NCBI GenBank assembly: GCA_964486815.1
Contig: CAZAOO010000004.1
Location: 75,371-139,370 of the forward strand
Length of the DNA: 64,000 nt
Direction: 5' to 3'
Source: an uncultured Thiotrichales bacterium
GTDB taxonomy: Bacteria; Pseudomonadota; Gammaproteobacteria; UBA4575
Under the pieces are notes generated by a model. The model did not search any database and was not told the origin of the DNA. It was given only the letters and a program-made list of their open reading frames with translations. How positions within the stretch are numbered: position 1 is the stretch's first letter; every line of letters begins with the position of its first letter. The position numbers and the translations under genes were made by a program. Positions 11,403-57,405 of this stretch are shown here, piece by piece.

Positions 11403-11404
11403 CG

Positions 11405-16071: not shown

Positions 16072-16093
16072 ATAAACATAACGTAAATAAAAA

Positions 16094-26231: not shown

Positions 26232-26285
26232 TAGCATTCATATTTTTCTATTAAGATTAAATTTTATTTATTTATAAAATTAAAC

Positions 26286-28361: not shown

Positions 28362-28441
28362 ATTCTCTTTTTATGAATTCTGGCTCATTGAAGTTTGGAC
28401 AAAAATATAGTCTGAAGCTAGAACATACATCTATCCCAGAT

Positions 28442-29140
28442 TTATGAATATTCTTTATCTCTTTTAAGTTGCGAGTACATGGCCACAGCTTCCGTACGGT
28501 TTTGTACGTTTAAAGTTTTAAAAATGCGAGATGAATGCATTTTAACTGTCCCGACATTTAAACCAAGATCATTTGCAATGTCTCTGTTCGGTTTACCAAG
28601 CGCCATGAGGTCTAATACTTCCAGTTGTCGCGGTGTAAGTTGCGTGTAGCCCTTCTCTAAAGAGCTCCCAAATGATTCTGCTGTGTAAGTTTGCTCAAGT
28701 GCTTGATCATCGCTAGATGAAACTGTCCCTAAAATATGTGGAGGTACATACACTCCACCAGATAAAACCAATTTTATTGCACTCATCATCACTTCTGGTG
28801 ATGATGTTTTAGGTATATAGCCCATTGCGCCCGCAGCCAGAGCGCTACGTATTGCTGCTATATGCTCTCTAACCGAGACTACGATTACGGGTACATCAGG
28901 CCACTCTTTACAAATTTGTTTAATACCTTCCATGCCACTCATACCAGGCATTAAAAGATCCAGCAATAATAAATCTACAGAGTTACCTTCATTTAGAAAG
29001 TCTAAAGTTTGCTTAAAACCACTAGTCTCGACAATTTCTACATTCTCTTGAACTAATTTAACTAATTGAACAAGACCGCCACGTACCAATGCATGATCAT
29101 CTGCTACCACAATTCTAAAAATTGAAGAATCAACACTCAT
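28442..29140 (-). CDS. NarL/FixJ (LuxR-type) response regulator
   Basis: Receiver domain (IVVADDHALVRGGL, LLLLDLLMPGMSG) and a C-terminal LuxR HTH (LTPRQLEVLDLMALGKPNRDIANDLGLNVGTVKMH). It is divergent from urtA. Confidence 0.85.
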   Translation of the reverse strand: MSVDSSIFRIVVADDHALVRGGLVQLVKLVQENVEIVETSGFKQTLDFLNEGNSVDLLLLDLLMPGMSGMEGIKQICKEWPDVPVIVVSVREHIAAIRSALAAGAMGYIPKTSSPEVMMSAIKLVLSGGVYVPPHILGTVSSSDDQALEQTYTAESFGSSLEKGYTQLTPRQLEVLDLMALGKPNRDIANDLGLNVGTVKMHSSRIFKTLNVQNRTEAVAMYSQLKRDKEYS

Positions 29141-29420: not shown

Positions 29421-29492
29421 TATATGTATTGACCCAGTTGCCTATATATGATTCACTATATGCCATAAGTCTATATACTTATGACCGTGTCC
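29421..29492. promoter_or_regulatory. Conserved promoter/operator block upstream of urtA; TTGACC...ATATATGATTCACT...GCCATAAGT-N6-ACTTATGAC
   Basis: The sequence tattgacccagttgcctatatatgattcactatatgccataagtctatatacttatgacc is re-found with few changes upstream of dmfA1 (34865-34935). The palindromic core is shared with 50748-50782. Confidence 0.4.
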
Positions 29493-30971: not shown

Positions 30972-31197
30972 ATTTAAGCTTGATTCGTGTGAGTAGCAAC
31001 TTAGGCATACATGCTGAAGTCGTTACTCACTTCGAGCAAGAATTTGCTAATAAACGTTAGCTTTTTAGGTCGTTAGTTTGAGCACATAAAAGAATAGTAA
31101 CTACCTGTGTATGCATTATAAAAATAATGTTTATAAAACTAAAAAATGCTAATTGCAGTTATGCCCTAACAGGTAAATTCAAGGAGAAGATTAGTTA

Positions 31198-32100: not shown

Positions 32101-32139
32101 TTATAAGAACCGCACTATAGAATCTGGAGAATTAACAAA

Positions 32140-33974: not shown

Positions 33975-33975
33975 C

Positions 33976-34864: not shown

Positions 34865-34935
34865 TTCTATATTGACCTATAAGCCAATATATGATTCACT
34901 TATGGTCATTAGACAGTAGTCTTTTGGCTATAATT
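34865..34935. promoter_or_regulatory. Second copy of the conserved promoter/operator block, upstream of dmfA1
   Basis: The sequence ttctatattgacctataagccaatatatgattcacttatggtcattag aligns with 29421-29492. TTGACC, ATATATGATTCACT and the half-site ACTTATGG are shared. Confidence 0.4.
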
Positions 34936-35060
34936 GCGCATGCTTTTATATTGATTGCATATATAAAAATGGTCAACTCAAAACCTGAGGATCAAGCTTA
35001 TTAAATACAACATTTTTTAACTCATCACTACAACTCATGCAATTTGCGGAGGAAGAATAA

Positions 35061-35510: not shown

Positions 35511-35563
35511 ATAACGGATTAGACATAATAAATAAAGAATAATTTAGATCAGGAGAACATGAT

Positions 35564-37963: not shown

Positions 37964-38076
37964 GGCTTGGTACTTTTGCAATACATTGGCTAACTTAAGT
38001 AAGTTGAATTATTTCAAAATGTGTAAACCTCCAAAGCATCATTGACACAATCAGGTGTCAATGATGTACAAGGCAA

Positions 38077-41859: not shown

Positions 41860-42120
41860 AATATGTTTATAATTATATACCTTGCATAAATGATTAATGA
41901 GGTATTGAATGATTAAGCGCTGAGCACAGTAACGCTGTGTCACAGTAATGTTTATAAGTATTTAACTTACCATCTTTCGCTGTCCATAAATGAACCGTTT
42001 GCACTTCTAAATCCTGGCCAGATACTGTGGCTTTGGTTCGGTAAACCTTGCACAATTATATTTTCACCATCTACACTTCTGAAAGTTCCCCTCTACTGTT
42101 TACAAGCTTATAATAACGTT

Positions 42121-42368
42121 CTGCTTACTGTTTTATATTTTTACTCATGTATTTATATCCTCCCCATCAAAATACAGGTTTATTGATGTAACTCTAGGTG
42201 ATTTAACAAAACATATTTACGTCAAACACCATTAGTAGAATTAATAATTATGCATAGCCATAAGTATGTATAAAATATATTTATTCTTAATAGTTAATTG
42301 ATTAAGTAGTGCAATATTAAGGAAATAAACGAGTTATGACGTAAGAATATTCATTTAACTTGAATACC
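42121..42368. repeat. Direct repeat copy D (~250 bp), downstream flank of the ABC/DMFase-like operon; a degenerate copy of 50610-50956
   Basis: Aligns over its length with 50610-50956 in the same orientation (ctgcttactgttttatattttTACTCATGTaTTTATATCCtCCCC...CAGGTTTATTGATGT...gccataagtat...gacgtaagaatattcatttaact). Confidence 0.6.
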
Positions 42369-42394
42369 TTCTAAATACAAATCAATTACATTTA

Positions 42395-44716
42395 TTATCT
42401 CCACTGTTTTTCTTCAAGCGTCCAGCTTCCCCCTGGAAGTTCACCATCCTTAATAAAATTATCGACAACATTTTTAAGCAAGCTTGAAGCGCCATTTTTA
42501 TAATCATTTGCAGGCAAAGCTGATCCAAAAGCAATTGAGCCTGTGCTAAACACAGCACCATTATTGGGTGCTGTAAAATAAGTTATATCTGCGCGTACAC
42601 GATAATCTAAGCTACCAACTAAGCCTGCATAGGCATACAAAAGCTCTTCCGTTACTACCACATAGTTATCACTATGCCCTCCCGATGAGGCAATAATTTT
42701 AGTATGCGGCGGCGTACCTAATGAGAGATCGTAGCGATCTAGCTCAATTCCCGCAGCACCACCATAAGCTAAACCTTCATCACCAAAAACCTCATCCTCA
42801 ATTCCTTCTGTGAGCCAAGAAACGGTTCGATGATAGCTATCAGGCATTTTCCTAAAAGGTGCACTAGTTTCAAATCCTTCTGCAATAAAACCTACGCCGG
42901 TAAGTTTTTGCGGTGCACGCCCACGTGTTCTCCACAAACCACTCTTCTCACCTGTGGTTTGCAAATAGTGTTCACCAGCTTTTGCCGCCCAAGCACGCAT
43001 ACCTGAATCTAATTTTCTAACTTCCATACACCAAGGTTCATCCTCATTAAAACCGATACACCAGTAATAACCATTGCCACCCATATATATGAGTCGCCCA
43101 CCTTGAGCTACAAAGTCTTCTTGTGCATCTAACATCCGTTCCGAAACATATTCTGGATGTGTGCCAGTCATTACACAGTTATAAGGTTCTAATGCACTTA
43201 ATTCTTCCTGATGTAAATCTTCATCAGTAATAATGTCATAGTCATAACCACTCGCTTCAAGCCAAGCTATAATGGAAAGATCAGCAGGAAATTGCCACGG
43301 CACATTCATACTTGATATGCGATATTTCGGTCGCATATTTACGATGGGCCTCTTATAGGAACTGAATGACACACCCGCACCATCCTCATAACTGTCGTAC
43401 GTTGACAATCCAAATTCACCATTTTTATAAATTTCAATATCGACATCACTGATTACAGGTGGTTGCCCTGTCATAGGTTGTATTATTTGTGCATCAAAAC
43501 TTAATTTTTCATTTGCATAGGCAAGATAACTAGCAGTAGGAACCAAAAAACATAATTTAGATGTAGGTTTAGCTGGTCTTACAAAAAAGACTACATATTC
43601 TTCACCCAACCCATTACCACTACCTGCAGTTAAACGAAATGCATATACTCCACTTTTTAAATTTTCCGGGACCTGCATAGATTTAGTTACTTCCCAATTA
43701 CAATCTGTAACTGACTCAGGGTGGAACTCAATACCTCCATACTCATACGGTGCCAGCCTGAAACAATCATTTTTCCCTGACCAATTCCAACCTGTTAAAC
43801 CTCGTACAGGATGATTTACACCAACTGCATTAAGTTTATGGGGACCAATATCGACAACCGTGTTACCGATACCATTTTCCGTATAGCCTTCCGTTGTATC
43901 CCAGTACGCTAAGATAGAGTTTTTGGGTGGCAATTCGCCGGAACAAACTTTGTCTAATTCATCACGTGAAAGAGCTCGATTACAAATACCCGGGCGATCA
44001 ATTTTTCCGAAATACATGTCGTTAACAAAATTACCTCTTAATTCATGAAAATCTAATGCTCCTGCAATCATGAAAGGAACATCTTGTCTGTTTTTTTGTT
44101 TGAACCTAAGGGTAGTTTGCATGTGCGAGCTAAAATCATATGGCGTAACCTTTCCAATTAACGAGTTATAGCGATTCATAACTCCCTCTTGAAAAAGAGT
44201 TACTTTACCGCTACTAGGATCAAAACTTGCAGCTACGAAATACCAGACTTTATCTACTAGTGGTAATTCAGAAGCAATATAGTCAATCTCTGCGCCATCA
44301 CCCACCCAAAATTCGAGATGACCTTGCGGATTTATACCGATTCCATAACCCTCATTGGTGCGCGCATCTACTCGCCCTAATAGAGTTTGGCGTAAACCTT
44401 TTTTAGAGATGGTTGGCCAGATATAACAGAATATAGTGAAACTTCCTTCAACACATAGATGCTGATTTGGATCATCAACAACCAAATGCGAGCCTAACTG
44501 AGTGAACTGTTTTTTAACATCCCATTCCCCATTCACTGGACATTCAACTTCTTCTTCAACAAAACCTGGGCCGTCTACATGCTCGTCACCATGTATAAGG
44601 CGTACAAGTTGGGCATCTGCTGTTTTTGTTCCATCTGCATTTACATGAATATCAATATCCTCACCTTGTTTAACAGATATTTTATTCGTATATCCAAATA
44701 TTTTAATTTCAGCCAT
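42395..44716 (-). CDS. DMFase large-subunit paralogue (N,N-dimethylformamidase beta-subunit-like amidohydrolase), substrate unknown
   Basis: 773 aa. Clearly homologous to the ORF at 35564 along its whole length (MAEIKIFGYTNKISVKQGEDIDIHVNADG...LIHGDEHVDGPGFVEEEV vs MRLTGYADKFGVHPGDTIKFHVNCDG...MIHGDTNPRGPGFIEKKV). It is the last gene of an ABC-importer operon. Confidence 0.7.
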   Translation of the reverse strand: MAEIKIFGYTNKISVKQGEDIDIHVNADGTKTADAQLVRLIHGDEHVDGPGFVEEEVECPVNGEWDVKKQFTQLGSHLVVDDPNQHLCVEGSFTIFCYIWPTISKKGLRQTLLGRVDARTNEGYGIGINPQGHLEFWVGDGAEIDYIASELPLVDKVWYFVAASFDPSSGKVTLFQEGVMNRYNSLIGKVTPYDFSSHMQTTLRFKQKNRQDVPFMIAGALDFHELRGNFVNDMYFGKIDRPGICNRALSRDELDKVCSGELPPKNSILAYWDTTEGYTENGIGNTVVDIGPHKLNAVGVNHPVRGLTGWNWSGKNDCFRLAPYEYGGIEFHPESVTDCNWEVTKSMQVPENLKSGVYAFRLTAGSGNGLGEEYVVFFVRPAKPTSKLCFLVPTASYLAYANEKLSFDAQIIQPMTGQPPVISDVDIEIYKNGEFGLSTYDSYEDGAGVSFSSYKRPIVNMRPKYRISSMNVPWQFPADLSIIAWLEASGYDYDIITDEDLHQEELSALEPYNCVMTGTHPEYVSERMLDAQEDFVAQGGRLIYMGGNGYYWCIGFNEDEPWCMEVRKLDSGMRAWAAKAGEHYLQTTGEKSGLWRTRGRAPQKLTGVGFIAEGFETSAPFRKMPDSYHRTVSWLTEGIEDEVFGDEGLAYGGAAGIELDRYDLSLGTPPHTKIIASSGGHSDNYVVVTEELLYAYAGLVGSLDYRVRADITYFTAPNNGAVFSTGSIAFGSALPANDYKNGASSLLKNVVDNFIKDGELPGGSWTLEEKQWR

Positions 44717-44754
44717 TTTTTATTATTCCCAGATTAAATAGTTATCCATTAAAT

Positions 44755-45096
44755 TTAGGATTCCATTAGATCACTAATTCTTTTCAAAAATACCCCGTGG
44801 TAAGCATCTTCAATTGTTTTAAATTCCTTGCCTTCAACAATACGAGGAAGCTCACCTCTCACACCTGAAAGTGCAATGATTTTGAATGAACTAGTTTTAT
44901 TGTCGCGCTTAATCGCATATTTATTTTTTTGTGGTGCACTACAAAAATAATGCAACAATCTCGAAAGAGGTTCACTGTGCTGCCCATGAGAGTTGTTTTC
45001 ATGCTCTTGTATGACATCTTGGCAGACTAAAGTTTTTAGAAATTCGCTTTGTTTTTTATCGAAATATTCACGATAAAAAATATCTTTATCCTTCAC
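44755..45096 (-). CDS. DMFase small-subunit-like protein (free-standing)
   Basis: 113 aa with an apparent GTG start. ~60% identical to the C-terminal 115 aa of the permease encoded immediately upstream. Homologous to DmfA1 at 35061. Confidence 0.55.
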   Translation of the reverse strand: MKDKDIFYREYFDKKQSEFLKTLVCQDVIQEHENNSHGQHSEPLSRLLHYFCSAPQKNKYAIKRDNKTSSFKIIALSGVRGELPRIVEGKEFKTIEDAYHGVFLKRISDLMES

Positions 45097-45148
45097 TTCA
45101 ATTTCTTCTTCAATGGATATGGATTAATATTATTATTAATTATTCTTA

Positions 45149-46798
45149 CTATGATTCCAGCAAATCGTATACACGTCTTACAAAAACACCATGGTAAGCA
45201 TCTTCGATAGTTTTGTATTCTTTATCTTCGACTAATCGTGGAGACATTCCTCTTACCCCCGAGAACGCTACAATCTTAAATGTATTTGAAATTCCATCGC
45301 GTTTAATTGCATATTTATCATTTTGAGGAACACGACGAAAATAAAGTAATATTCTTTCTAGTGCTTCACTATGTTGTCCTAGAGGTTTACTTTTATGTTC
45401 ATTTATTACTTCATCACACACTAGATTTTTTAAATAATCTCTTTGCATCTTGTCGAAACGCCGATGGTATATATGATCTTTATCGCAGATCTCCGTCGCC
45501 TCTTCTGGTAAGACATCACCACCTTTTTCAGCGCGAGCCGACCGCCACTCCCCTTTCTTTTTATCACGCCAAGCACGAAATTGTTGTTTCATGCCAAATA
45601 GACCTTTGTTTAAAAATAACACAACGAACAGCATTAATAGTCCTATCATAACGTGTCTTACAGGCCCTAAAGTAATCAAAACTTTATCCAATATAACTAC
45701 AATCAGTGTGCCAATAATTGCACCTTCTGCTTTCCCGATACCACCAATGGTAAGCATAGCCAAGCCAAGCAAAAGAGTATCAAAACTAAATATTGAAAAA
45801 GCTACTCCTCTGTAATGTGCAGCATAAAAACCACCAATGAATCCAAGCGCTACTGAAGAAACAAGAAATACGGTTATTCTTGCCTGCTTATAATTCACAC
45901 CAGTAGCTTCAGCAAACGCTTCTCTTTTCTCGGGTGCCATTTTTAACAGTCGACCAAGACGTTTACCATCTACAAATCTAAACAAAAAAAGTGCAGCAAT
46001 TAATAATGCAAAAGCTCCATAGTATGAGACCAGTGATTGCATTAATGGTGGCCAATCAGAATTTATGTACGTTGAGGCACCATATAAACCTCCTGAAGCA
46101 GAACCAAATTCTTTTGAGGTAACCATATAAACTCTACAAAGCTCATTTAAACCTAAAGTCAACAATGCATAGTAAAATCCATCTAAACGCATTGCCGGTA
46201 ATGCAATGATCCCACCAAAAATAAATCCGATAGCCATTCCAATTAAGGGTAATGACCACCACGGATAGCCTAAATTTATCGATAACCAAGAAGTACAAAA
46301 TGCTGCCACACCAACTACTGCATAGGTGGCAAGTGAAAAAATACTCGCCGTACCAATCACTAATGTCCAACATACATTTATCGCAGCAAATATTCCAAAC
46401 ACCGCTCCTGCCGTAAGAAGTGTGTTCTGCATACTTTCAGGAAAGAAAAGAGGTGCTAAAGCTAATGCTGTTAAACCTATTACCCAATAAATAGGGCGTT
46501 TATCCACAATTAGTTTTTGAGCTTTAAGAGACTTTATATTGTAATAGCCTCGTACATGTAACAAGGTTCTTCTAGTTGGCCACCACCTCAATCTTTTCCA
46601 AAGACGTTCCCCATGATTTTTCCATTTATATATATATTTAAACCGACCTACTTTATAGAGAGGCACGTTATAAGTTTTATTTTTATCCCAAATTGATCCA
46701 GGATCCTCTACTTTTATTGAAGGAACTTCATAATTTCCACCTTTATCTCCCCAAACCGATAGTGGATTCTTCCAGGTATACTTTTTAGTATTGCTCAT
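45149..46798 (-). CDS. ABC permease (LivM/UrtC-type) fused to a C-terminal DMFase small-subunit-like domain
   Basis: 549 aa. Residues ~100-410 form a LivM-family polytopic permease. Residues ~430-549 (…HIYHRRFDKMQRDYLKNLVCDEVINEHKSKPLGQHSEALERILLYF…KIVAFSGVRGMSPRLVEDKEYKTIEDAYHGVFVRRVYDLLES) repeat the sequence of the next gene. The start overlaps the upstream permease stop (ATGA). Confidence 0.7.
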   Translation of the reverse strand: MSNTKKYTWKNPLSVWGDKGGNYEVPSIKVEDPGSIWDKNKTYNVPLYKVGRFKYIYKWKNHGERLWKRLRWWPTRRTLLHVRGYYNIKSLKAQKLIVDKRPIYWVIGLTALALAPLFFPESMQNTLLTAGAVFGIFAAINVCWTLVIGTASIFSLATYAVVGVAAFCTSWLSINLGYPWWSLPLIGMAIGFIFGGIIALPAMRLDGFYYALLTLGLNELCRVYMVTSKEFGSASGGLYGASTYINSDWPPLMQSLVSYYGAFALLIAALFLFRFVDGKRLGRLLKMAPEKREAFAEATGVNYKQARITVFLVSSVALGFIGGFYAAHYRGVAFSIFSFDTLLLGLAMLTIGGIGKAEGAIIGTLIVVILDKVLITLGPVRHVMIGLLMLFVVLFLNKGLFGMKQQFRAWRDKKKGEWRSARAEKGGDVLPEEATEICDKDHIYHRRFDKMQRDYLKNLVCDEVINEHKSKPLGQHSEALERILLYFRRVPQNDKYAIKRDGISNTFKIVAFSGVRGMSPRLVEDKEYKTIEDAYHGVFVRRVYDLLES

Positions 46799-47676
46799 TG
46801 CTCACGCGCCTTATCCAAAAGACCCGCAATACCTCTTGGTCTGATAATTAATATTGTAATAATCACAAGAAACTGTGTGATCAACACATATTGCCCACCT
46901 AATAACCTCGATGTAAGCGCTTCAGTCAGACCAAGAATGATGGCAGCAATTACAGCACCTTGAACACTTCCGAGACCACCGCATAACGCTATGCTCACAC
47001 CTTTGATTAATGGAGTTAAACCGCTAAAGGGTGATATATAATAAGTCTGAGACAGAAGCACAGCCGAAAGACCCGCCATACCTCCAGTAATTGCCATTAC
47101 ATAAAAGCCTGTTTTCCTTATCCCAATACCAACAATAGATGCGGCATGAGGGTTCATCATCATGGCTCGTATTTCTAAACCGCGTCTACTGGACTTCATC
47201 CATAGCACAACAAATATCAACATCAATATGGAACAGACTATTATTCCAATTTTATCAGAGGTTAAAACGGTGTTACCTATAGAGACTTTCCAATAACCAA
47301 ATACTTCAGGCAGTGCTTTATTTTTTGGACCAAAATACCAAAGCAAACCCTGTGAGCCAATTAAGCTAATCGCCAGTGTTCCAATCATGCCCCTAATGGT
47401 AAAATTTGGCTTGTCATGTAGCGGTATAAAAACCAACATACAAATGATAATCCCTCCAAGTGCTCCAATTAATATTCCAGCAGCAATCACTACGACTGGA
47501 TGATCAGAAATCATTCGCGCTGCTAAGTAAGCACCATATCCTGCAAATGAAAAAATAAATCCATAACTTAGATTCAGCAACCCCAAACTTGACCAAGTAA
47601 TAGAGACCGCTACGGCTATAAGGCCATAAATACAAGCTACTATAGTTGCATTAATTAATATGAAACTTATATCCAA
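46795..47676 (-). CDS. ABC permease (LivH/UrtB-type)
   Basis: 293 aa polytopic LivH-family permease. Confidence 0.85.
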   Translation of the reverse strand: MDISFILINATIVACIYGLIAVAVSITWSSLGLLNLSYGFIFSFAGYGAYLAARMISDHPVVVIAAGILIGALGGIIICMLVFIPLHDKPNFTIRGMIGTLAISLIGSQGLLWYFGPKNKALPEVFGYWKVSIGNTVLTSDKIGIIVCSILMLIFVVLWMKSSRRGLEIRAMMMNPHAASIVGIGIRKTGFYVMAITGGMAGLSAVLLSQTYYISPFSGLTPLIKGVSIALCGGLGSVQGAVIAAIILGLTEALTSRLLGGQYVLITQFLVIITILIIRPRGIAGLLDKAREQ

Positions 47677-47706
47677 ATCAAACCCACCTTAAATACTATT
47701 TACGGA

Positions 47707-48414
47707 CTACTTTAATTGCATTGACAAAGCAGAAGTTGCTTCACCTTTTAATTTTCCAGCATGCATTCCAATAACACGATCTACATTGCCTTCTAATAGA
47801 GCAACGTTTTGTTCAGCGATAATCATTGCTGAATTACTTAATTCTATTTTCAATAGCGCTTCCATTACACCCTTGCCAATTTTTGGTGCCAATCCCAACG
47901 ATGGTTCATCTGCAAGATAAAGTTTTGCATCCATCATCAACCCTCTTCCTATAGAAACCATTCTTCGTTCACCACCAGACAATCTTGCAACAGGTGTTTT
48001 TAATAATTTTTTTAATGGTTCAAACAAATCTAAAACTTGTTCTTTTCTTTGTTTTCGATTTTTCCAAGCTTGTTTTGTGAAAGCACCACTGTCTAGATGC
48101 TCTTCAACTGTTAGACCATGAAATATTTCATCTCCTTGGGGCATAATAGCGAGTCCTTGCCTAACAATATGATGCGTATAACGCCCCGGCCCTTGACTTC
48201 GCGTTCTACCAATTTGATTTCCATTAAATAAAATTGAGCCACGTTGCCAACCGGTTAGTCCCGCAATACCATAAAACAGTGTGGTTTTCCCATGGCCATT
48301 TAAACCCACCAATCCAACGCGTTCTCCAGAGCTAACTATTAAATCTAAGTCATGTATTACACGCAATGGGCCATAGCCTGTTGACAATCCCTGAACATTT
48401 AGTATTTCACTCAT
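47707..48414 (-). CDS. ABC transporter ATP-binding protein (LivF/UrtE-type)
   Basis: Walker A GLNGHGKTT, signature LSGGERRMVSIG, Walker B LYLADEPSLG. Confidence 0.85.
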   Translation of the reverse strand: MSEILNVQGLSTGYGPLRVIHDLDLIVSSGERVGLVGLNGHGKTTLFYGIAGLTGWQRGSILFNGNQIGRTRSQGPGRYTHHIVRQGLAIMPQGDEIFHGLTVEEHLDSGAFTKQAWKNRKQRKEQVLDLFEPLKKLLKTPVARLSGGERRMVSIGRGLMMDAKLYLADEPSLGLAPKIGKGVMEALLKIELSNSAMIIAEQNVALLEGNVDRVIGMHAGKLKGEATSALSMQLK

Positions 48415-49142
48415 TAGGCAGTCTCAAAATATGCAGCTTGTACTTTTGGACTGTTAATTATCTCTTTGAGCGAACCCTGTGCGATTACTTCGCCTGCATC
48501 CATGACAACTACTCTGTCAGCAATGGTTTCCAGGAGTTCAATTCTATGTTCTACAATTATTACTGCGATATTCATTTCTTTAGAAAGCATTCTTAGAATC
48601 TCGTCTATCTCATCTATTTCAGAATTGATTAATCCAGCAGCAGGTTCATCCATTAACAACAATTCTGGCTTATGCATGAGAAGATTAGCCAGCAATAGTT
48701 TGCGTCGGTTGAACGTTTTAAGTTGAGTATTAAACACATGTTCGTCCACAACAAAATCAACTAGATCCGCTGCGTATTCCGCATCGAAACGTGTGAGATA
48801 AGGCTTATAAGCTTGCCTTACCGCTTTGAATGTTTCGCCTACAGTAAGGTCTTCGGGAACCACTGGAGTTTGAAATGTTCGACCAATCCCAATTCGCGCA
48901 CGTTGATGAAAGTTCATGCCAGTAATGTTTTTTTGTTTATAAGAAACATTACCAGTTTTTGGCGTGTATCGACCTGAAAGAATTTCAAGCAAGCTAGTTT
49001 TACCTGCACCATTTGGACCAATGATGCCTAATACTTCTCCGGGTTTAATTTCTAAATTAATGTCTCGTAATATCTCTCTACCACCCAAATCGAGGGACAA
49101 GTTCTTGCACGAAAACAAAGGGGCAAAAGTTTGATCATCCAT
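48414..49142 (-). CDS. ABC transporter ATP-binding protein (LivG/UrtD-type)
   Basis: Walker A GPNGAGKTS, Walker B LLLMDEPAAGL. The stop overlaps the next gene's start. Confidence 0.85.
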   Translation of the reverse strand: MDDQTFAPLFSCKNLSLDLGGREILRDINLEIKPGEVLGIIGPNGAGKTSLLEILSGRYTPKTGNVSYKQKNITGMNFHQRARIGIGRTFQTPVVPEDLTVGETFKAVRQAYKPYLTRFDAEYAADLVDFVVDEHVFNTQLKTFNRRKLLLANLLMHKPELLLMDEPAAGLINSEIDEIDEILRMLSKEMNIAVIIVEHRIELLETIADRVVVMDAGEVIAQGSLKEIINSPKVQAAYFETA

Positions 49143-49168
49143 GAAATTCGCCCCACTATTCTTTTACG

Positions 49169-50515
49169 TTACCCCCACCAAGGAGCTGGCTGAAGTTTGG
49201 ATTCTGCTATTGCATTTGGCCAAACAATTTTGTGCTGCACGTCTTGTACTTGCACAAAAAGTTGACCCATACCAGTTTCATGCGAATCTGATTGATTTCC
49301 GAAACCATTGTCTGGATAGTGAAGAGCTTCTTGATATTCATTATCCATGTCCATCATTCCGCACACACCTCTATCTGGATTCGCTCTTACCCAAGCACAA
49401 TTCTTCTTGAAGTCTTCTGGTGTAGTATCCAATGCCTTAGTAGCATTCCACGCTTTCTCAAGATACTTAACGATGTCATAACCATTACCTGTATACACAA
49501 GACCCATGGTATTTCTTTCGTCATCACCAAACTCAGGAAAGCGTTTCAAATATTTTTTCCTAAAATCTTTTCCTTTTTTATCGCCATAAATCCCTAATAC
49601 GGTGCTCCAACAAAAACCTTCTGTTGCACGACCTCCAAGCTCTAAGAACTCAGGCTGTGACGGACCATACTGCAGATAAACGAGTGAATCTTTAACAGGA
49701 TCTGAACTAAATTGTTTACAAAATGCCGCATACTCAGAGGCTACCCAGTGATCAATCATAATTGCACCAGCATCCACTTCTTTAAGTCTTTGCATGACTG
49801 GCGACCAATCATTTACTGGGTATTGAATGTCTGTAACTTCTGCCAATTCAAAATCATATTTTGGAATGGCTTCTTTAGCGGCTTTAAGAATCGTTTGGCA
49901 ATAACCTACTTGTTCAGCAACAATGTGTATTTTTCTATTCTTAGGCTTCCATCCTTGCTCTTTTTCCATTTGTTGAAGCCAAAGCGGATAGGTCCAACCG
50001 TAATTCACTTCAGATGGGTCGGTTTGCAGCACATGGCTGTATTTTTCTGGCTCTGCTTTATATGCCTCAGTTGCATTTCGTTGTGTGTTGCCCTGTAAAT
50101 ATGGACATTTATATTTTGCAGATTCATCCATAGCAGGTATAGGCGCAAACAAAAATGAATTAGAGATCGCATGTACTTTTTTATCTATACATGCGGCAAT
50201 CGCTTGCCTACAACTTTCAGGATTAAGCTTGTCAACATCCGGAACAAATAACTCTAACTCTCTTCCTAATATTCCACCTGCTGCATTAATTTCTTCTTGA
50301 GCTAGAATGGAACCGTTAAGGTGATCTTGATCATCAGCAACACCATAGGGTGTTGACAAGGATGACGGGATACCTAATAAGATTTTATCTGATGCATCTA
50401 CTCGCCTCACCCATGGCGCAGGAAATGCAGAGACCACTGCACCTGCTGCAACTCCTTTTAATATTTTTCGTCTTGTTTGTTGACTTTTATTCAGCTTCTT
50501 CTCTTTTTTTCTCAT
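49169..50515 (-). CDS. Tat-exported periplasmic substrate-binding protein of the Liv/Urt/amide family (divergent from UrtA)
   Basis: 448 aa with twin-arginine motif TRRKILKGVAAGAVV and a type-I PBP fold. It is the first gene of the operon, with a GGAGG RBS. Confidence 0.8.
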   Translation of the reverse strand: MRKKEKKLNKSQQTRRKILKGVAAGAVVSAFPAPWVRRVDASDKILLGIPSSLSTPYGVADDQDHLNGSILAQEEINAAGGILGRELELFVPDVDKLNPESCRQAIAACIDKKVHAISNSFLFAPIPAMDESAKYKCPYLQGNTQRNATEAYKAEPEKYSHVLQTDPSEVNYGWTYPLWLQQMEKEQGWKPKNRKIHIVAEQVGYCQTILKAAKEAIPKYDFELAEVTDIQYPVNDWSPVMQRLKEVDAGAIMIDHWVASEYAAFCKQFSSDPVKDSLVYLQYGPSQPEFLELGGRATEGFCWSTVLGIYGDKKGKDFRKKYLKRFPEFGDDERNTMGLVYTGNGYDIVKYLEKAWNATKALDTTPEDFKKNCAWVRANPDRGVCGMMDMDNEYQEALHYPDNGFGNQSDSHETGMGQLFVQVQDVQHKIVWPNAIAESKLQPAPWWG

Positions 50516-50609
50516 AGTCTCGTCCTCCGAGTGAATATCAAAAATACCGGTTAGATATATTTCATTTTTAAGGATTCAAAAATAGATAGGCGATATTGCG
50601 ACAAGGAAT

Positions 50610-50956
50610 CTGCTAGTTCTTTTATATTTCTACTCATGTGTTTATATCCTTCCCCTTAGACACAGGTTTATTGATGTGACTGCTTCCCATTTAATAAAAT
50701 GTATTTACGTTAATTACCCTTACAAAAATTAACTAATTATTATGTATGGCCATAAGTATATATATAGTTATATACTTATGGCTAGTATAAAATATAGTAT
50801 ATATATATTTCTTATAATCAATATACGTATAACTAATTACAAAGCTATCCATATATTGTAGATTTTTTCGTATATATCAGAAAATTTATGCATCAAAAGT
50901 TACAAAGAAAAGCATATATGAGACATGACTTAAGAATATTCATCTAACTCAAATAT
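50610..50956. repeat. Direct repeat copy U (~350 bp), upstream flank/promoter region of the ABC/DMFase-like operon and of divergent ureE
   Basis: Aligns with 42121-42368. It contains an extra TA-rich insert and a complete 35-bp palindrome. Confidence 0.6.
50748..50782. promoter_or_regulatory. Perfect inverted repeat GGCCATAAGTATATA-N-TATATACTTATGGC; candidate operator in the divergent promoter region between the ABC/DMFase-like operon and ureE
   Basis: 14-bp arms that are exact reverse complements. The half-site GCCATAAGT recurs at 29462-29470 (with partner ACTTATGAC), 34887-34895 (ACTTATGGT) and 42256-42264. Confidence 0.45.
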
Positions 50957-50991
50957 GTACTGAATATCAATAAATTGTAAGAAATCTTCTG

Positions 50992-51441
50992 ATGATAGAA
51001 ATAAACCAAGTGCTTGGTCATTCACATGATTCGAATCTAGCGAATCAACTTCATGACTTATCACACCATAACAAAGTCGAATATATTGTTTTGGATCATG
51101 CAAATTTACAACGCCGTCGTTTTCGCACACAAACAGATCAAGGCACAGACTGCGCTGTGACAATAGCTCGTGATAATAAATTATCTAATGGTGCAGTTTT
51201 ATTATTAGAAAAAGATCGCGCCATTGTGGTGAAAATGGCTGAGGATCAGTGGCTTTCGCTCCACCCTAAAGATATTTCATGTGCGATTGAACTTGGCTAC
51301 TTTGCTGGCAATATGCATTGGCGAGTTAAGTTTGAGAATGAACGTCTTGATATTGCACTTGAAAGCCCTAAAGAAACTTATCTTGATCGATTACAGATAT
51401 TTTTTAACCAAAATAAAATAACTCTCGTTAAGCATGACTAA
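50992..51441 (+). CDS. ureE: Urease accessory protein UreE (no His-rich tail)
   Basis: 149 aa with the GNMHW motif (GNxH of the UreE metal-binding domain). Layout as in K. aerogenes UreE. Confidence 0.75.
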   Translation: MIEINQVLGHSHDSNLANQLHDLSHHNKVEYIVLDHANLQRRRFRTQTDQGTDCAVTIARDNKLSNGAVLLLEKDRAIVVKMAEDQWLSLHPKDISCAIELGYFAGNMHWRVKFENERLDIALESPKETYLDRLQIFFNQNKITLVKHD

Positions 51442-52114
51442 AGAAGAACAAATACTTACTCTTTTACAACATGGAGATAGCTTTTTTCCTTCTGGAGCAG
51501 TATCGTTTTCTTGGGGCTTGGAAATGTTAAATAACGACCAAGTCATCACTTCAATTAATGAGCTCAATATATTTATTGAAAATCAATTGCTTGAGAGATG
51601 GGCCCCGTTTGAACGTGTTGTCTTGGCTCATTCTTATGATCATGCTGATGATATCGAACATGTAATTTCCATTGATAGACTTGTTGAATGTATGACCTTA
51701 GCAAGTGAACTAAGAGATGGTTCAAAAAGATTAGGGTCTGCACTTTTAACTATATATCAACAACTAAATAACCCAATAGCAGACCGTTACCTCAAGCTAA
51801 GTTATGAAGGAAAAGCATTAGGTCACTTGCCGATTACCCAGGCTCTGGTGTGGAACTCGCTTGGTTTATCACGTAATTCAGTATTAATGTTATCTGCATA
51901 TAACTTTTGTGTTTCAGTGCTTGGAGCGGCATTACGGCTTGGCATTGTCGGTCATATAAACTGTCAAAAAAGTTTAACTGCATTTAGCCAACTAATTAGT
52001 GAAATTTTAACTTGGCCCATTCCCGCAATAGAAGATATTCATGCCTTCACTCCTTTTGCCGACATTGCATCGATGCGTCATGAAAATTCAGAGATTAGGC
52101 TATTTGCAAACTAA
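51434..52114 (+). CDS. ureF: Urease accessory protein UreF
   Basis: 226 aa, helical. The motif LLQHGDSFFPSGAVSFSWGLE matches the UreF N-terminus (FPxG..s.S.GLE). Confidence 0.8.
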   Translation: MTKEEQILTLLQHGDSFFPSGAVSFSWGLEMLNNDQVITSINELNIFIENQLLERWAPFERVVLAHSYDHADDIEHVISIDRLVECMTLASELRDGSKRLGSALLTIYQQLNNPIADRYLKLSYEGKALGHLPITQALVWNSLGLSRNSVLMLSAYNFCVSVLGAALRLGIVGHINCQKSLTAFSQLISEILTWPIPAIEDIHAFTPFADIASMRHENSEIRLFAN

Positions 52115-52145
52115 AAATAATTACTCAAAGATTCGGAGATAAACC

Positions 52146-52841
52146 ATGCTACTAACACCCACTGAATATGAGCGTTTAACTATTTACACTGCGGCCGAAC
52201 TTGCAAGAAAAAGAAGAGAGAAAGGCTTGAAATTAAATCATCCAGAAGCAACAGCTATTATTGCTGACGAAATTTGTGAAGGAGCAAGAGAAGGTCGAAG
52301 TGTTGCAGAAATGATTAGCTTTGGTTCAACAATATTAAGCACCGACGATGTTATGCCTGGTGTTGGAGATATGATGCACATGCTTCAAGTTGAGGCTACC
52401 TTTCCTGATGGCACCAAATTAGTCACCGTACATGAACCGATACGATCAGGTAAAAAGAAAACTAAAGGAAATATCGTACCAGGGGAAATTATACCGGGTG
52501 ATGGTGATATCAAAATTAATGCAGGAAAACGCTCAAACAAACTAAAAGTACTTAATACAGGTGACCGCCCTGTACAAATTGGTAGCCATTTTCACTTTTT
52601 TGAAGTTAATCCAGGATTAGATTTTAAACGTAGTGACGCATTTGGAAAACACCTGGATATACCCGCCGGCACCGCAGTGCGTTTCGAGCCAGGTGAAAGC
52701 AAAGAAGTACAACTGGTTAATTTTGGTGGCGCTAGAGAAATACATGGCTTAAACAGTTTAACGAATGGTTCAACTACCAATGATGTTAAAAAACAAGAAG
52801 CCTTGCTCGAAGCTAAAAATCGTGGATTTAAGGGGGCATAA
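52146..52841 (+). CDS. ureAB: Urease gamma-beta fused subunit (Helicobacter-type UreA)
   Basis: Residues 1-100 are urease gamma ([11 protein letters not shown]...LKLNHPEA...[19 protein letters not shown]). Residues ~107-231 are urease beta ([17 protein letters not shown]...). Confidence 0.9.
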
Positions 52842-52845
52842 GAAA

Positions 52846-54558
52846 ATGATTAAAATTTCGAGAAAAGAATATGCAACTATGTATGGCCCTACCAAAGGAG
52901 ATGCAGTGCGTCTTGGAGACACCTCATTGTTGGCAGAAGTTGAACAAGACTGTGCCGTTCCGGGTGATGAATGTTTGCATGGTGGCGGTAAAACTTTACG
53001 CGATGGATTGGGACTAACTCCGGGCTATGACAGTGCAGCAGGTTCCTTAGACATGTTGGTTAGTAACGCACTGATAATTGATCCCGTATTAGGCATTGTC
53101 AAAGCCGATATAGGAATTAAAGAAGGTAATATAGCAGGCGTCGGCAAAGCTGGAAATCCTGCGACTATGGATAATGTAGACCCTGATCTTGTTTGCGGTG
53201 CTGCAACTACGGTACGAGATGCAGAGGGACTTATTGCAACACCAGGTGGAATAGACGTGCATGTGCATTTTGATAGTGCGCAGTTATGTGATCACGCAAT
53301 TGGTTCAGGCATTACCACCATGCTTGGTGGATCGTTGGGCCCAATCACCGTTGGCATAGACTGTGGCGGAGCATGGAATGTTGGCAAGATGTTACAAGCT
53401 TCTGAGCAATGGCCAATAAATTTTGGATTTTTAGGCCGTGGTAATTCTTCTAAACCTAGATCTCTGGTCGATCAACTTGCAGGTGGCTGTTTAGGATTAA
53501 AAATTCACGAAGATTGGGGTGCTATGCCAGCTGTAATTGACACCTGTCTTTCTGTTGCTGACGATTTAGATTTTCAAGTACAACTTCATACCGATACACT
53601 CAACGAAAGTGGCTTTGTTGAAAATACATTAGCTGCCATAAATGGCCGCACAATTCATATGTATCACACCGAAGGTGCAGGTGGAGGACACGCACCTGAC
53701 ATTATTCGAGTTGCGGGTGAATATAATTGCCTACCCTCTTCCACTAATCCAACCAATCCATACACAATCAATACATTTGATGAACACTTAGACATGACCA
53801 TGGTATGTCATCATTTGAATCCTGCTATCCCAGAAGATGTAGCCTTTGCAGAAAGTCGTATTCGTGCACAAACCATCGCAGCGGAAGATGTAATGCATGA
53901 TCTTGGTGCGATTTCTATGTTGGGCTCTGATAGTCAAGGAATGGGACGTATCAATGAAGTCATTTGCCGGACTTGGCAATTAGCAAGCAAGATGAAAGAT
54001 CAACGCGGTCGACTTGAAGAAGAACAAACGAAGCTTGGAGATAATGAAAGAATAAAACGTTATATAGCGAAATACACCATCAACGCCGCACGTACATTTG
54101 GTATTGATCAATATATAGGCTCATTAGAAAAAGGAAAAATGGCAGATATAGTGTTATGGAAACCCGCATTTTTTGGAATAAAACCAGAATTAATTATAAA
54201 AGGTGGTTTTATAGTTTGGTCCGCAATGGGTGACAGTGCTGCGTCACTCATGACTTGCGAACCCCTAGCGATGCGACCTCAGTGGGGAGCGTTCGGAAAT
54301 GCTAAACAACAGTTGAGTGCTAATTTTGTAAACCAGTCAGCAGTTGATGCCAATATTGGCGAAAAGTTACAACTACAAAAAACCTGCCTTGCTGCGCAAG
54401 GTACACGAAAACTTAATAAAGGCCATATGCTACACAACGATAATTGCCCAAAAGTGACGGTTAATCCTAATACATTCGATGTATTTGTCGACGGTGAACT
54501 GGCCACTTGTGAACCCGCTGAGACACTACCATTAACCCAACGATACATGCTTCGATGA
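52846..54558 (+). CDS. ureC: Urease alpha subunit
   Basis: Ni-site motifs [49 protein letters not shown]. The ATG at 52846 ([10 protein letters not shown]) is preferred over the longer overlapping ORF at 52765. Confidence 0.92.
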
Positions 54559-55181
54559 ACAAAAAAGCTTCTCAAAATGGCCCCGCGCGAGTCGGCATAG
54601 GTGGACCTGTAGGCTCAGGTAAAACAGCGCTGATCGAACAACTAATTCCTATCTTTATTACTCGTGGAAATGAAATTGCAATTGTAACTAATGATTTAGT
54701 TACACGTGAAGATGCTAAGCGACTACAACAATCTGGTTTACTTGCCCCAGAGCGAGTGGTTGCAGTAGAGGCAGGTGCTTGTCCGCACACCGTCATACGA
54801 GAAGATCCTACACTAAATATACAGGCTGTAAATCGATTAGACCAACAATTTGAAAACTTAGATATCATTTTGATTGAAAGCGGTGGCGACAACCTTGCTT
54901 CTACTTTTTCTTTGGATCTTGTGGATTATTGGATGTTTGTAATTGACACTTCAGAAGGAGATGACATCCCGCGTAAACGTGGGCCTGGTATTGTACAATC
55001 TGACCTATTAGTAATCAATAAAATTGATATCGCTAAATACGTAGGTGCAGATGTTGATTTAATGGTGAGAGAAGGACAAGAAGTTAGAGGTAACAAACCT
55101 CTAGTGCTCACTAACTGTAAAACAGGACAAGGAATTGAGGATGTGGCTAACCACATTATCAACAACGTGCTCTTTAAATAG
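54555..55181 (+). CDS. ureG: Urease accessory GTPase UreG
   Basis: P-loop [16 protein letters not shown] and NKIDIA motifs. Confidence 0.92.
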
Positions 55182-55193
55182 TATAGAAAATAA

Positions 55194-56003
55194 ATGACAA
55201 ATTTATCACTAGAATTTGCAAGAAATTGCGATGGGAAAACATTCCTTGAATACCAATATGCATCATACCCATTTCATATTTGTAGAACTCAATACCTTGA
55301 GAATGATCCACCTGGAATGGCTAATATCTATATTCAGTCTGCGTCTGGCGGAATATATGAAAATGAAATCCTAACTACGAATGTTATTGCTAGTACGGGT
55401 TCATACAGTCACGTAACTACACAAGCCTCAACCATCGTACATGGCATGACGGATGGCAGTGCATATCAAACAGTAAATATTAATGCTATAGATAACTCAT
55501 ATACAGAATATGTATCTGACCCATTAATTCTTTTCCCTCAGTCAAAATTAAGCACAACTATAAATATATTTGCAGATCAAACCAGTACGGCTGTGATTGC
55601 AGATGCATTTTTACTACACTTTTTAAATGGTGAAAATCGAGTCTTTAAGCAATTAAAAAGCTATTTGCAAATTCACGATGAAAATAATCAATTACTGGCT
55701 AAAGATGTCTACATAATTAATCCAGTGAACTTTTTATCTACAGGACGAAAATATATAGGCATGGGTACTATTTCAATTATAAATCGTTCAATCAACACTG
55801 AAGGCATGTTAGAACGATTACAAGAAGCGATTAAAGCTAATAAAAACGTTTATGGAGGCGCTACCTTATTACCAAATAACTGTGGAATCATAATTAAATT
55901 CTTAGCCCCTGATGGAGATTTTCTAAAAAAGACGATTACTCAACTATGGATGGATATTAGAGAATTATTAGTAGGCACAAAACCAAACATACGAAAGAAA
56001 TAA
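55194..56003 (+). CDS. ureD: Urease accessory protein UreD (UreH in Helicobacter nomenclature)
   Basis: 269 aa. Assigned by position after ureG and by its beta-helix-like composition. Confidence 0.7.
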   Translation: MTNLSLEFARNCDGKTFLEYQYASYPFHICRTQYLENDPPGMANIYIQSASGGIYENEILTTNVIASTGSYSHVTTQASTIVHGMTDGSAYQTVNINAIDNSYTEYVSDPLILFPQSKLSTTINIFADQTSTAVIADAFLLHFLNGENRVFKQLKSYLQIHDENNQLLAKDVYIINPVNFLSTGRKYIGMGTISIINRSINTEGMLERLQEAIKANKNVYGGATLLPNNCGIIIKFLAPDGDFLKKTITQLWMDIRELLVGTKPNIRKK

Positions 56004-56014
56004 TAATATTTAAC

Positions 56015-56671
56015 ATGACTTTATTATTCATACTTGCTATTAGTATCGGCATCCGTCACGCATTTGAGCCTGACCATATGGCAGCTGTTCTGACAGTTTC
56101 AACACAATCTAATTCCTTATCCGCAACTGCCAAACAAGGCGCTATCTGGGGCGTAGGACACACCATAACCCTATTCATATTCAGCATGATATTAATGGGT
56201 TTGGATATTAAAATAGATGGAAGTGTGTTTGTATTTTTTGAATTTATTGTCGGTATAGTTTTAATATGGATGGGCCTAGATGTAATTAATAAATCCAAGA
56301 TTTTATTACATGCTAGAGTAAAAAAGAACACTAATTCTTTAATGAAAACTAAAAATGATGAAACTAAACTATCATTAAAATTACTTTCGGTAGGATTATT
56401 GCATGGTGCAGCTGGATCTGGTGTAATTATTGCGCTTGTAAGCACTACAATAGACTCTATTTACTTAAAATTTACATATATAGCATTATTTAGTATTGGA
56501 TTAATTTTAAGCATGTCTTTACTCTCAATGCTTATGACTATGCCCTTACATAGCAGAGTGAAAATTATTCCTTTTCGGTATTTTAAGGTAATAACTGGGA
56601 CACTAGCATTATTGATTGGCATGAAAATACTTTACCAATCTAGCGCACAAATAGGCACATTATTTGTTTGA
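56015..56671 (+). CDS. Nickel permease, NicO/UreH-like (HX4DH family)
   Basis: 6-TM protein with the N-terminal HAFEPDH motif (HX4DH nickel-transporter signature) and a second His-containing helix (LLHGAAGSG). It lies directly after the urease cluster. Confidence 0.5.
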   Translation: MTLLFILAISIGIRHAFEPDHMAAVLTVSTQSNSLSATAKQGAIWGVGHTITLFIFSMILMGLDIKIDGSVFVFFEFIVGIVLIWMGLDVINKSKILLHARVKKNTNSLMKTKNDETKLSLKLLSVGLLHGAAGSGVIIALVSTTIDSIYLKFTYIALFSIGLILSMSLLSMLMTMPLHSRVKIIPFRYFKVITGTLALLIGMKILYQSSAQIGTLFV

Positions 56672-56730
56672 TAAAATACTGCAATAAAATAATCTGCAAC
56701 ATTATCTATACATCTAGATTTAAATTATTA

Positions 56731-57405
56731 ATGAATTTCAAAATTTGTGAAGATGTTTCTGCGCTTAGCATAAAAGTTGCATTTCTTATAATTCATAACA
56801 TTGACAACAATCATTATGATGATTCACTCAAACATAAGATGGATATATTTTATGCTCAATTTCTGAGGAAGTACTCAACTAAAAGCCTTGAAAATGATGT
56901 AAACATTATAGGTTATAGACAACTGCATGAAATAATAGGCATTACTGATAAATCCTTGATCTCCTCACCTGAGAGTTTAATAAATTTACTTTTCAAATAT
57001 AAGTCATTACGATCTATCAATTTTATTGTTGACACGTATAACTATATAGCAATTAAAAACAAGATATCTATAGGCGCCCATGACGTAAAGCATATAAATG
57101 GAAATGTCAGATTATGTTTTACCGTAGGTGATGAAAAATTCATTCCCTTAGGTAAAAATAAACCAAAAACAATTAGTTGTGGAGAATATTGCTATATAGA
57201 TGACGATAATGAAATACTATGTAGGCTAGATTCTAGACAATGTGATAAAACTAAAACTACAGTAGACACTAAAGATTGCCTGTTTATAATTCAAGGGCAC
57301 AAAAATATAGCATTAGGGTTAATAAAAGCAACTGCAGAGGAACTACTGGCTACTTTCAGACCATACGTTAAAAATGTAAAAGAGAGTATTTTAATAATAA
57401 AATAA
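56731..57405 (+). CDS. B3/4 domain-containing protein (PheT B3/B4-like)
   Basis: Assigned from overall architecture only. The start at the ATG 56731 (MNFKICEDV) is preferred over 56668. Confidence 0.35.
   Translation: MNFKICEDVSALSIKVAFLIIHNIDNNHYDDSLKHKMDIFYAQFLRKYSTKSLENDVNIIGYRQLHEIIGITDKSLISSPESLINLLFKYKSLRSINFIVDTYNYIAIKNKISIGAHDVKHINGNVRLCFTVGDEKFIPLGKNKPKTISCGEYCYIDDDNEILCRLDSRQCDKTKTTVDTKDCLFIIQGHKNIALGLIKATAEELLATFRPYVKNVKESILIIK

Follow-up and report, generated by a model that had tools for sequence, protein, structure and literature searches.

The 64,000-nucleotide stretch analysed here (hereafter the window; 37.9% G+C), from an uncultured Thiotrichales bacterium, carries a urease cluster that begins with ureE and, divergent from it, an operon that begins with a remnant of a SnoaL-family gene (snoaL') and encodes a substrate-binding protein (SBP), ATP-binding cassette (ABC) transporter components and dimethylformamidase (DMFase)-like subunits. 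At lower coordinates lie urtABCDE and dmfA1A2, preceded by genes for a sensory system. The gene calls were confirmed by Pfam and NCBIfam annotation, and the coordinates are collected in Table 1. The divergent intergenic region, with ureE on one side and the snoaL'-SBP-ABC-DMFase-like operon on the other, contains the element studied here, GCCATAAGTATATA-TATAGT-TATATACTTATGGC at 50749-50782, an exact inverted repeat with arms of 14+14 bp and 34 bp in all. An exhaustive search for perfect inverted repeats (arms of at least 10 bp, loops of at most 30 nt) showed that this palindrome is the longest of the window, the runners-up having 12-bp arms; by a naive estimate of our own, made with no tool, a 14-bp arm with a loop of at most 30 nt is expected by chance about 0.02 times per window. 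The preliminary description of this DNA had reported a perfect 14-bp-arm palindrome between the SBP operon and ureE, and the search bore this out, with the start at 50749 and not one base earlier at 50748.

We compared the palindrome with its counterparts in the nearest relatives, which are uncultured Gammaproteobacteria represented by metagenome-assembled genomes labelled Arenicellales or Thiotrichales (their loci are designated below by L numbers). In a second uncultured gammaproteobacterium, L071, whose SBP is 94% identical, the equivalent sequence is GCCATAAGTATATA-TCCTTC-TATATACTTATGGC, at a distance of 216 bp from the start codon of ureE and 106 bp from that of snoaL. The window and L071 agree at all 28 arm positions and at 2 of the 6 spacer positions, and the remaining intergenic DNA is 72% identical (gaps excluded). 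At this background the probability that all 28 arm positions match is about 9e-5. The conserved positions include the inner AT-rich part of the arms (ATATA) and those outside the promoter-like hexamers (AAGTATA / TATACTT). Retention of the arms with divergence of spacer and flanks among orthologues, as an operator would show, was thereby found in L071, and it was also found for the urtA arms of the seven taxa described below.

The intergenic module is duplicated within the window. Its copies, at 42120-42387 and 50609-50976, are oriented as direct repeats, are roughly 80% identical and lie on either side of the DMFase-like operon. Read on the minus strand, each starts with the ribosome-binding site and ATG start codon of a gene that is broken. 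In L071 the module copies lie at 6834-7186 and 15733-16094, and the duplication brackets an 8-kb operon in both genomes; the L071 snoaL gene is intact (7187-7588) and encodes a 133-aa SnoaL_2/NTF2-like protein as the first gene of the SBP operon. The non-functional copy has decayed. In the window its second arm falls within about 32 bp that are missing from that copy. The second copy in L071, downstream of the DMFase-like gene, reads GGCATAAGTATATA-TCGCTA-TATATCCCTATGAC, with both arms recognisable but mutated (one mismatch in the left 8-mer half-site and three in the right). As both arms survive in this L071 copy, the palindrome is older than the duplication, and the copy in the window lost its arm by deletion; palindrome and duplication are thus both older than the split between the window and L071. 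The copies provide a natural control: in both genomes the copy before the live operon stayed perfect and the copy beside the dead gene decayed. The preliminary description had counted the half-site at 42257-42265 as a recurrence at a promoter; the sequence is present, yet it lies in the dead duplicate beside the broken snoaL and serves no live gene. The arrangement suggests that the operon arrived or was rearranged through recombination between module copies. A third arrangement was seen at L168, where ureE is followed by snoaL, glutamate-synthase-like genes and a yhdP-like gene. That the palindrome travels with snoaL as such was ruled out, since the snoaL orthologue loci L168, L169 and L170 are without it.

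The half-sites of the palindrome recur at two further promoters of the window. We aligned the promoters of the window with those at six further loci that carry orthologues of the response regulator (70-88% identity) and share the synteny sensor-kinase-regulator<>urtABCDE-dmfA1A2. All 14 promoters contain one module, TTGACC-N14-TGA-TTCACT-N5-CCATAAGT-N6-ACTTATGG-CCAT, in which N14 is fixed in length and free in sequence. The conserved half-site is the 8-mer CCATAAGT, not the 9-mer proposed earlier, as the left arm does not keep the outer G. Upstream of urtA the window contains the near-palindrome with N6 that had been described there, GCCATAAGT-CTATAT-ACTTATGAC at 29462-29485, and the six relatives contain a perfect CCATAAGT-N6-ACTTATGG. 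The urtA 8-mers are invariant across the seven taxa (regulator 70-100% identical) except for one G-to-A change in the right arm of the window, and the adjacent 14-nt spacer and the downstream DNA vary freely across them. The N6 reads (C/A)TATA(T/G), and in L166 and L171-L173 the sites form uninterrupted palindromes of 22-26 bp. Two-fold symmetry, as would befit the operator of a dimeric factor, is thus found at the main palindrome (14+14 bp) and at urtA (8+8 bp, perfect in the six relatives). Upstream of dmfA1 the element homologous to the palindrome arms is the degenerate TCATTAGA-CAGTAG-TCTTTTGG at 34906-34927, with weaker arms and a spacing equal to that at urtA (CCATAAGr-CAGTAG-ACyTTTGG in the relatives). 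The dmfA1 half-site of the preliminary description exists as a sequence, but its coordinates were 11 bp off (34898-34905, not 34887-34895) and its register was wrong: this ACTTATGG is the TTCACT-TATGG junction just upstream of the dmfA1 element and no homologue of the palindrome arms. Recurrence of the motif at the promoters of related operons therefore concerns urtA, dmfA1 and the snoaL'/SBP operon.

Two further observations were made in these promoter regions. The presumed urtA 5' leader (29510-29560) contains a highly conserved AACATTCGATTCTAACAACTCTGAGATTGGCAT, and a similar CTGAGGATCAAGC is found at about 34985-35000 in the leader of dmfA1; Rfam gave no match. L174, whose regulator is 61% identical and whose DNA has 57% G+C, is without the motif in its urtA upstream region. 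There, at about 9470-9540 on the minus strand, CCATATGG-CAGTAG equals the left part of the L172 dmfA1 element and is followed by GGTTGACA, a possible remnant of the module in another promoter layout.

The number of motif copies is not in itself unusual. With at most one mismatch the 9-mer was found 20 times in the window against 16 expected, which is not significant as a count, and the exact 8-mer was found 5 times against 2.3 expected, a number reached by 9 of 100 shuffles. None of the 5 exact 8-mers is in coding DNA; they are distributed over four regulatory intergenic regions. Across 346 kb of related DNA, sites with zero mismatches occur only at the urtA promoters (N6, six loci) and at the main palindrome (N16, window and L071). 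Sites with up to three mismatches are at background in the window (11 vs 7.8 in shuffles). The non-random aspects are the placement of the motif and its conservation in orthologous promoters, not its number. A near-match in L075, TCATAAGT-N4-ACTTATGG, is unrelated, being a LysR-type T-N11-A box at the start of a LysR gene. No match was found in viral and plasmid collections; together with the lack of an adjacent transposase and the nature of the flanking repeats, which are direct intergenic copies, this excluded a mobile-element terminal repeat.

The half-sites coincide with predicted core promoters. Where the spacer meets the right arm, three bases of each make up a junction hexamer, which in the 14 promoters reads TATACT, TAGACT, TAGACC or TAGTCT; it is TA(T/G)ACT in 11 of them, with T1, A2 and C5 invariant and T6 in 12, and it lies 16 nt after the invariant TTCACT. 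A consensus scan independently called TTCACT-16-TATACT at urtA, with the -10-like TATACT at 29474-29479. In the main palindrome it called the same 9/12 promoter, T(A/G)GCCA-18-TATACT, on both strands, one toward ureE and one toward the operon. If these assignments hold, the left half-site at urtA and dmfA1 would lie in the spacer between the -35-like TTCACT and the -10-like TA(T/G)ACT, and the right half-site would extend from inside the -10 to about -2. A protein bound there would occlude RNA polymerase, so the site would most likely mediate repression; its overlap with the predicted -10 and core promoter suits a repressor and not an upstream activator site. Since promoters are called on both strands inside the main palindrome, a bound protein would cover both.

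From the sequence comparison we consider it somewhat more probable than even that the palindrome is a DNA operator, the binding site of a sequence-specific transcription factor on the core promoter or promoters of the divergent region. The factor would make a two-fold symmetric contact and would probably be dimeric or tetrameric. Because the CCATAAGT half-site is common to the main site, the urtABCDE promoter and, in weaker form, the dmfA1A2 promoter, these genes may form one small regulon for scavenging amide and urea nitrogen, in which repression would be lifted by a substrate or nitrogen signal; urease might belong to it through the shared divergent region. Of the regulon operator for a dimeric factor that had been proposed before, the shared symmetric motif at urtABCDE, dmfA1A2 and the DMFase-like operon is retained, and the fourth copy is lost. 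For the proposed membership of urease, the divergent arrangement is the only basis.

A number of points weigh against the operator. The main palindrome is documented in two genomes only, the window and L071; five close relatives with the same operon (L003, L004, L005, L061 and L075) have different upstream DNA with other repeats, and L168, which has ureE and snoaL and a different downstream operon, is without the palindrome. The operator protein is putative. The promoter hexamers are predictions whose number in this AT-rich DNA is not above that in shuffles, and some of the conservation of the right arm could be due to a -10 element by itself. A second candidate promoter with equal conservation is TTGACC-17-TTCACT, which has a TG two bases upstream and a poor -10; transcripts started from it would carry the palindromes at their 5' ends. 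The spacing of the half-sites is also not constant: the main palindrome has N16 where urtA and dmfA1 have N6, and therefore one rigid dimer cannot bind all three sites alike. The difference is exactly 10 bp, one helical turn, so that the half-sites are on the same face of the helix and not equidistant. The two spacings may be explained by a protein that is flexible or tetrameric, by two modes of binding or by an involvement of the extended AT-rich inner arms (ATATA).

Several of the relatives carry repeats of their own upstream of the DMFase-like operon. In L075 (about 9300-10000) TAAACA-N4-TGTTTA occurs three times beside a divergent gene for a LuxR-type regulator, in L061 (about 1560-1610) ACTATCAGTTAACTA stands twice in tandem, and in L004 (about 9700-9760) TATATACTATCAACTAATT is found. 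The regulatory DNA of this operon turns over rapidly.

As to the regulator, it is possible, though on present evidence unlikely, that the phosphorylated LuxR/NarL-type response regulator (28442-29140) binds the site and activates urt, dmfA, the DMFase-like importer and urease. In all seven motif-keeping taxa its gene and urtA diverge from one intergenic region, which contains the site, and the synteny of the sensory system (24936..29140) is kept in L163-L173. The protein belongs to the NarL/FixJ family and has a GerE helix-turn-helix; its best NCBIfam matches, ErdR and NarL, are far below the cutoffs, and NarL and VraR are the structural relatives nearest to it in sequence. Inverted repeats that contain TAAG are recognised by members of the NarL family, GacA/UvrY and RcsB among them. 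The DMFase-like operon of L075 adjoins the gene of another LuxR-type response regulator with its own triple palindrome, and in Paracoccus aminophilus dmfA1A2 is controlled by the LuxR-family activator DmfR (PMC4543880). Activation is nevertheless unlikely at a site that spans the spacer and the -10 of the predicted promoter and lies neither upstream of nor at the -35. No regulator gene is found near the main palindrome in the window or in L071. The recognition helix GTVKMHSSRIFKTL is essentially unchanged in eight orthologues, including that of the motif-less L174 (61% identity), so that the motif does not track the helix, a result that leaves the candidate neither established nor rejected and that also counts against the operator proposed above. 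TTGACC at about -55 and the block GCAAAGAAT…TGCAAT…ATTTCTCAAG, nearer the regulator gene, are equally good candidate sites for this regulator. A metagenome scan with the response regulator as query returned only matches of at most 41% identity. By adjacency only, the NarL-type regulator is the leading candidate.

The preliminary description had named two candidate binders. For the LuxR-type regulator, linkage to the urtA site speaks in favour, and linkage to the main palindrome, helix tracking and activator position speak against. The XRE/cupin protein lost its standing, as no such motif is found around its gene or the neighbouring genes of the N-methylglutamate pathway. Two other conserved blocks lie in the same intergenic regions. 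The regulator-urtA region contains, nearer the regulator gene, a conserved GCAAAGAAtTnnAtTGCAATAnATTTCTCAAG (29243-29283; L163 about 9856-9891; L164 about 9843-9878), of which the L163 copy is an almost perfect palindrome of roughly 20 bp around TATTGCAATA; the response regulator might bind this block instead, or be autoregulated through it. A conserved GACATGACTTAAGAATATTCATCTAACT is present in all four module copies 45-75 nt upstream of ureE (50918-50950, 42329-42361 and L071 about 6869-6902); its core TAAGAATATTCAT resembles an RcsB-type NarL-family box, and the block may be a ureE-proximal regulatory site.

Combining the operator with this candidate gives a more detailed picture that we regard as speculative and improbable as a whole: one regulator would read the same half-sites one helical turn apart, and the N16 operator would gate two interdigitated divergent promoters, coupling urease to the uncharacterised DMFase-like operon for amide import and hydrolysis, under a urea/amide-sensing system made up of the UrtA-like sensor, the hybrid kinase and a NarL-type repressor.

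We think it rather improbable that the inverted repeats act instead as RNA, forming a stem-loop at the 5' terminus that would shield the mRNA from 5'-end-dependent decay or be the target of an RNA-binding regulator. Transcripts would then have to start from TTGACC-17-TTCACT at urtA and dmfA1 and from the TATACT/TATGCT one nucleotide before the main palindrome, a set of starts to which we give the same low credence. TTGACC, the fixed 17-nt spacing and the TG two bases before TTCACT are indeed invariant in the 14 promoters, and the -10-like TATACT/TATGCT directly precedes the main palindrome in three copies. TTCACT nevertheless lacks the near-essential A at position 2 of the -10. The predicted folds are stable, at -18.4 kcal/mol for the main palindrome (z = -5.3 and -6.5) and -6.7 to -13.1 for the others, but such stability is automatic for any palindrome. 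The dmfA1 version of the window pairs better when G·U is allowed; across the seven taxa, however, the 8-bp arms show zero compensatory or G·U-type changes, and the dmfA1 changes break pairs. A stem at 38037-38066 covaries in the same loci at equal divergence and served as a positive control. A scan of 28000-52000 against Rfam (E<=1) gave one unrelated weak match in coding DNA. An intrinsic terminator was rejected, with no terminator-like sites in the three regions scanned and an A+T-rich stem. With no compensatory arm changes, no Rfam family and no terminators, sequence-specific recognition of DNA is therefore favoured. The target of an ANTAR antiterminator was considered on account of the amiC/amiR-like/amidase cluster in the window. 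ANTAR targets consist of two tandem hairpins with A-x-x-G-x-x hexaloops next to a terminator; this candidate was rejected, as each site has a single hairpin with the loop ACUAUA, UCCUUC or CUAUAU and no terminator.

The control stem, CATCATTGACAC-AATCAG-GTGTCAATGATG, is itself a perfect palindrome with 12-bp arms and lies between the stop codon of dmfA2 and the next gene, which is Rieske-type oxygenase-like. Six relatives keep it, with compensatory changes in the outer pairs (CATC/GATG, CGTC/GACG, TATC/GATA and CGCC/GGCG), with G·U-compatible single changes and with no T-run; it probably forms an RNA stem-loop between the cistrons that serves processing or stability.

Less probable still is that no separate regulator exists and that the main palindrome consists of a pair of divergent sigma-70 promoters that interdigitate (T[A/G]GCCA-18-TATACT, one per strand), the symmetry following from the shared DNA. 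Bidirectional promoters arising from sequence symmetry are common in bacteria, and here the same 9/12 promoter is called on both strands with hexamers kept in L071. The left half-site CCATAAGT, however, is invariant within the promoter spacer at urtA and dmfA1, a stretch in which RNA polymerase has no sequence requirement, the opposite strand offers no matching -35 for the N6 sites, and the non-hexamer positions (AAGTATA / TATACTT) are conserved too; the count of promoter-like matches is not above that in shuffles. We give very little credence to a non-functional by-product, be it a local inverted duplication in TA-rich low-complexity DNA or a relic of the module duplication: the absence of the second arm within about 32 bp missing from the left copy of the window, the TA-rich centre and the rearranged locus with direct repeats flanking the operon would fit, but the two arms of the decayed L071 copy date the palindrome before the duplication, the arms match at 28/28 against a 72% background, and the same half-sites stand at urtA in seven taxa. 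Sigma-54, NtcA (GTA-N8-TAC), Nac (ATA-N9-TAT), CRP/FNR, spacer activation of the MerR type and a sigma-32 -10 were rejected on spacing or sequence, the aligned promoters being judged by eye against the consensus sequences.

Two features of the surrounding genes were also observed. In the urease cluster the gamma and beta subunits are fused (52146-52841, 231 aa) and the structural genes come after the accessory genes ureE and ureF. On the minus strand at 9437-12583 lie an aliphatic amidase gene (NCBIfam equivalog), a 200-aa gene in the position of AmiR and a gene for an AmiC/UrtA-like binding protein. The 200-aa gene is regarded as an AmiR (ANTAR) gene by analogy with L164 and has no family match in the window. 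From its gene content, this segment appears to be a second, independent amide-sensing system beside the methylamine (N-methylglutamate pathway) genes.

Table 1 Coordinates of the features discussed, in positions of the window
Feature	Position	Strand	Remarks
XRE/cupin protein, weakly PuuR-like	14316-14981		unlinked to any of the three promoters
UrtA-like binding protein	24936-26231	+	
NahK/ErcS-type hybrid histidine kinase	26286-28361	+	
NarL/FixJ-type response regulator, GerE helix-turn-helix	28442-29140	-	divergent from urtA
Conserved upstream block TTGACC-N14-TGA-TTCACT	29429..29457	+	invariant hexamers, fixed spacing, 14 promoters
urtA-upstream 8-6-8 site CCATAAGT-CTATAT-ACTTATGA	29463..29484	+	one G-to-A in right arm, window only
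urtABCDE	29637-34671		
dmfA1-upstream module copy TTGACC-N14-TGA-TTCACT-TATGG-TCATTAGA-CAGTAG-TCTTTTGG	34872..34927	+	8-6-8 site degenerate
dmfA1/dmfA2	35061-37963		
Frameshifted SnoaL-like pseudogene of the decayed copy	41894..42147	-	reading frames match the L071 snoaL product
Decayed module copy	42120..42387		single arm left (CCATAAGT at 42258-42265); downstream of the DMFase-like large-subunit gene
Operon presumably under the palindrome: SBP (49169-50515), two ABC ATPases, two permeases, DMFase-like small and large subunits	42395..50515	-	same gene order in L071
SnoaL_2-family operon leader gene	50551..50637	-	truncated 28-codon remnant
Live module copy	50609..50976		snoaL 5' end, promoter region, palindrome, AAGAATATTC block at 50932
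Promoter-like TGGCCA-18-TATACT toward ureE	50747..50776	+	wholly inside palindrome and flank; consensus match only
Left arm GCCATAAGTATATA	50749..50762		core half-site CCATAAGT at 50750-50757; same in L071
Mirror promoter-like TAGCCA-18-TATACT toward the snoaL'/SBP/ABC/DMFase-like operon	50755..50784	-	hexamers also in L071
Spacer TATAGT, 6 nt	50763..50768		unconstrained: 2/6 positions as in L071 (GAAGGA, this strand)
Right arm TATATACTTATGGC	50769..50782		core half-site ACTTATGG at 50774-50781
Divergent urease cluster: ureE, ureF, fused ureAB, ureC, ureG, ureD, NicO-like gene, B3_4-domain gene	50992..57405	+	

If confirmed, the operator would give a first handle on the co-regulation of urea uptake, dimethylformamidase, the DMFase-like operon and possibly urease in uncultured Arenicellales-like marine Gammaproteobacteria. 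It would also supply a searchable signature, CCATAAGT-N6/N16-ACTTATGG on a TTCACT/TA(T/G)ACT promoter, for finding members of the regulon in metagenomes, and would help to give the uncharacterised DMFase-like operon a physiological role.

The proposed operator has counterparts among known systems. Classical repressor operators on core promoters include lac O1, tetO and the LexA and Fur boxes. Like these, the sites described here are dyads of about 20-34 bp over the predicted -10 and start, with conserved arms and a free centre, reused at several promoters of one functional regulon; in contrast to them, two spacings occur (N6 and N16), the main site would cover two interdigitated divergent promoters and the repressor is putative. 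The sites of NarL/FixJ proteins, namely the GacA/UvrY box TGTAAG-N6-CTTACA, the RcsB box and the DegU inverted repeat, are TAAG-containing inverted repeats as found here, and a NarL-family gene lies beside one of our sites, but the half-site here is longer (8 bp), the spacing is another one and the site overlaps the -10 instead of lying upstream. Repressors of the PuuR type, XRE/cupin proteins that control the putrescine regulon of E. coli, bind AT-centred palindromes of roughly 20 bp. The window encodes a weakly PuuR-like XRE/cupin protein, yet no CCATAAGT-type site flanks its gene. The sole regulator described for a DMFase operon in the literature consulted is DmfR, a LuxR-family activator of dmfA1A2 on plasmid pAMI2 of Paracoccus aminophilus (PMC4543880, citing Dziewit et al. 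2010). Our candidate regulator belongs to the same broad helix-turn-helix family, but the organism and gene context of DmfR differ, with no urt linkage, UrtA-like sensor or hybrid kinase. Apart from DmfR, that literature describes neither a regulator nor an operator for urt/DMFase clusters like this one. Compared with these systems, the sequence described here is most likely a real cis-regulatory motif that defines a small regulon, a previously undescribed motif with the familiar mechanism of an operator on a promoter, and its sole unusual feature is the pair of spacings one helical turn apart.

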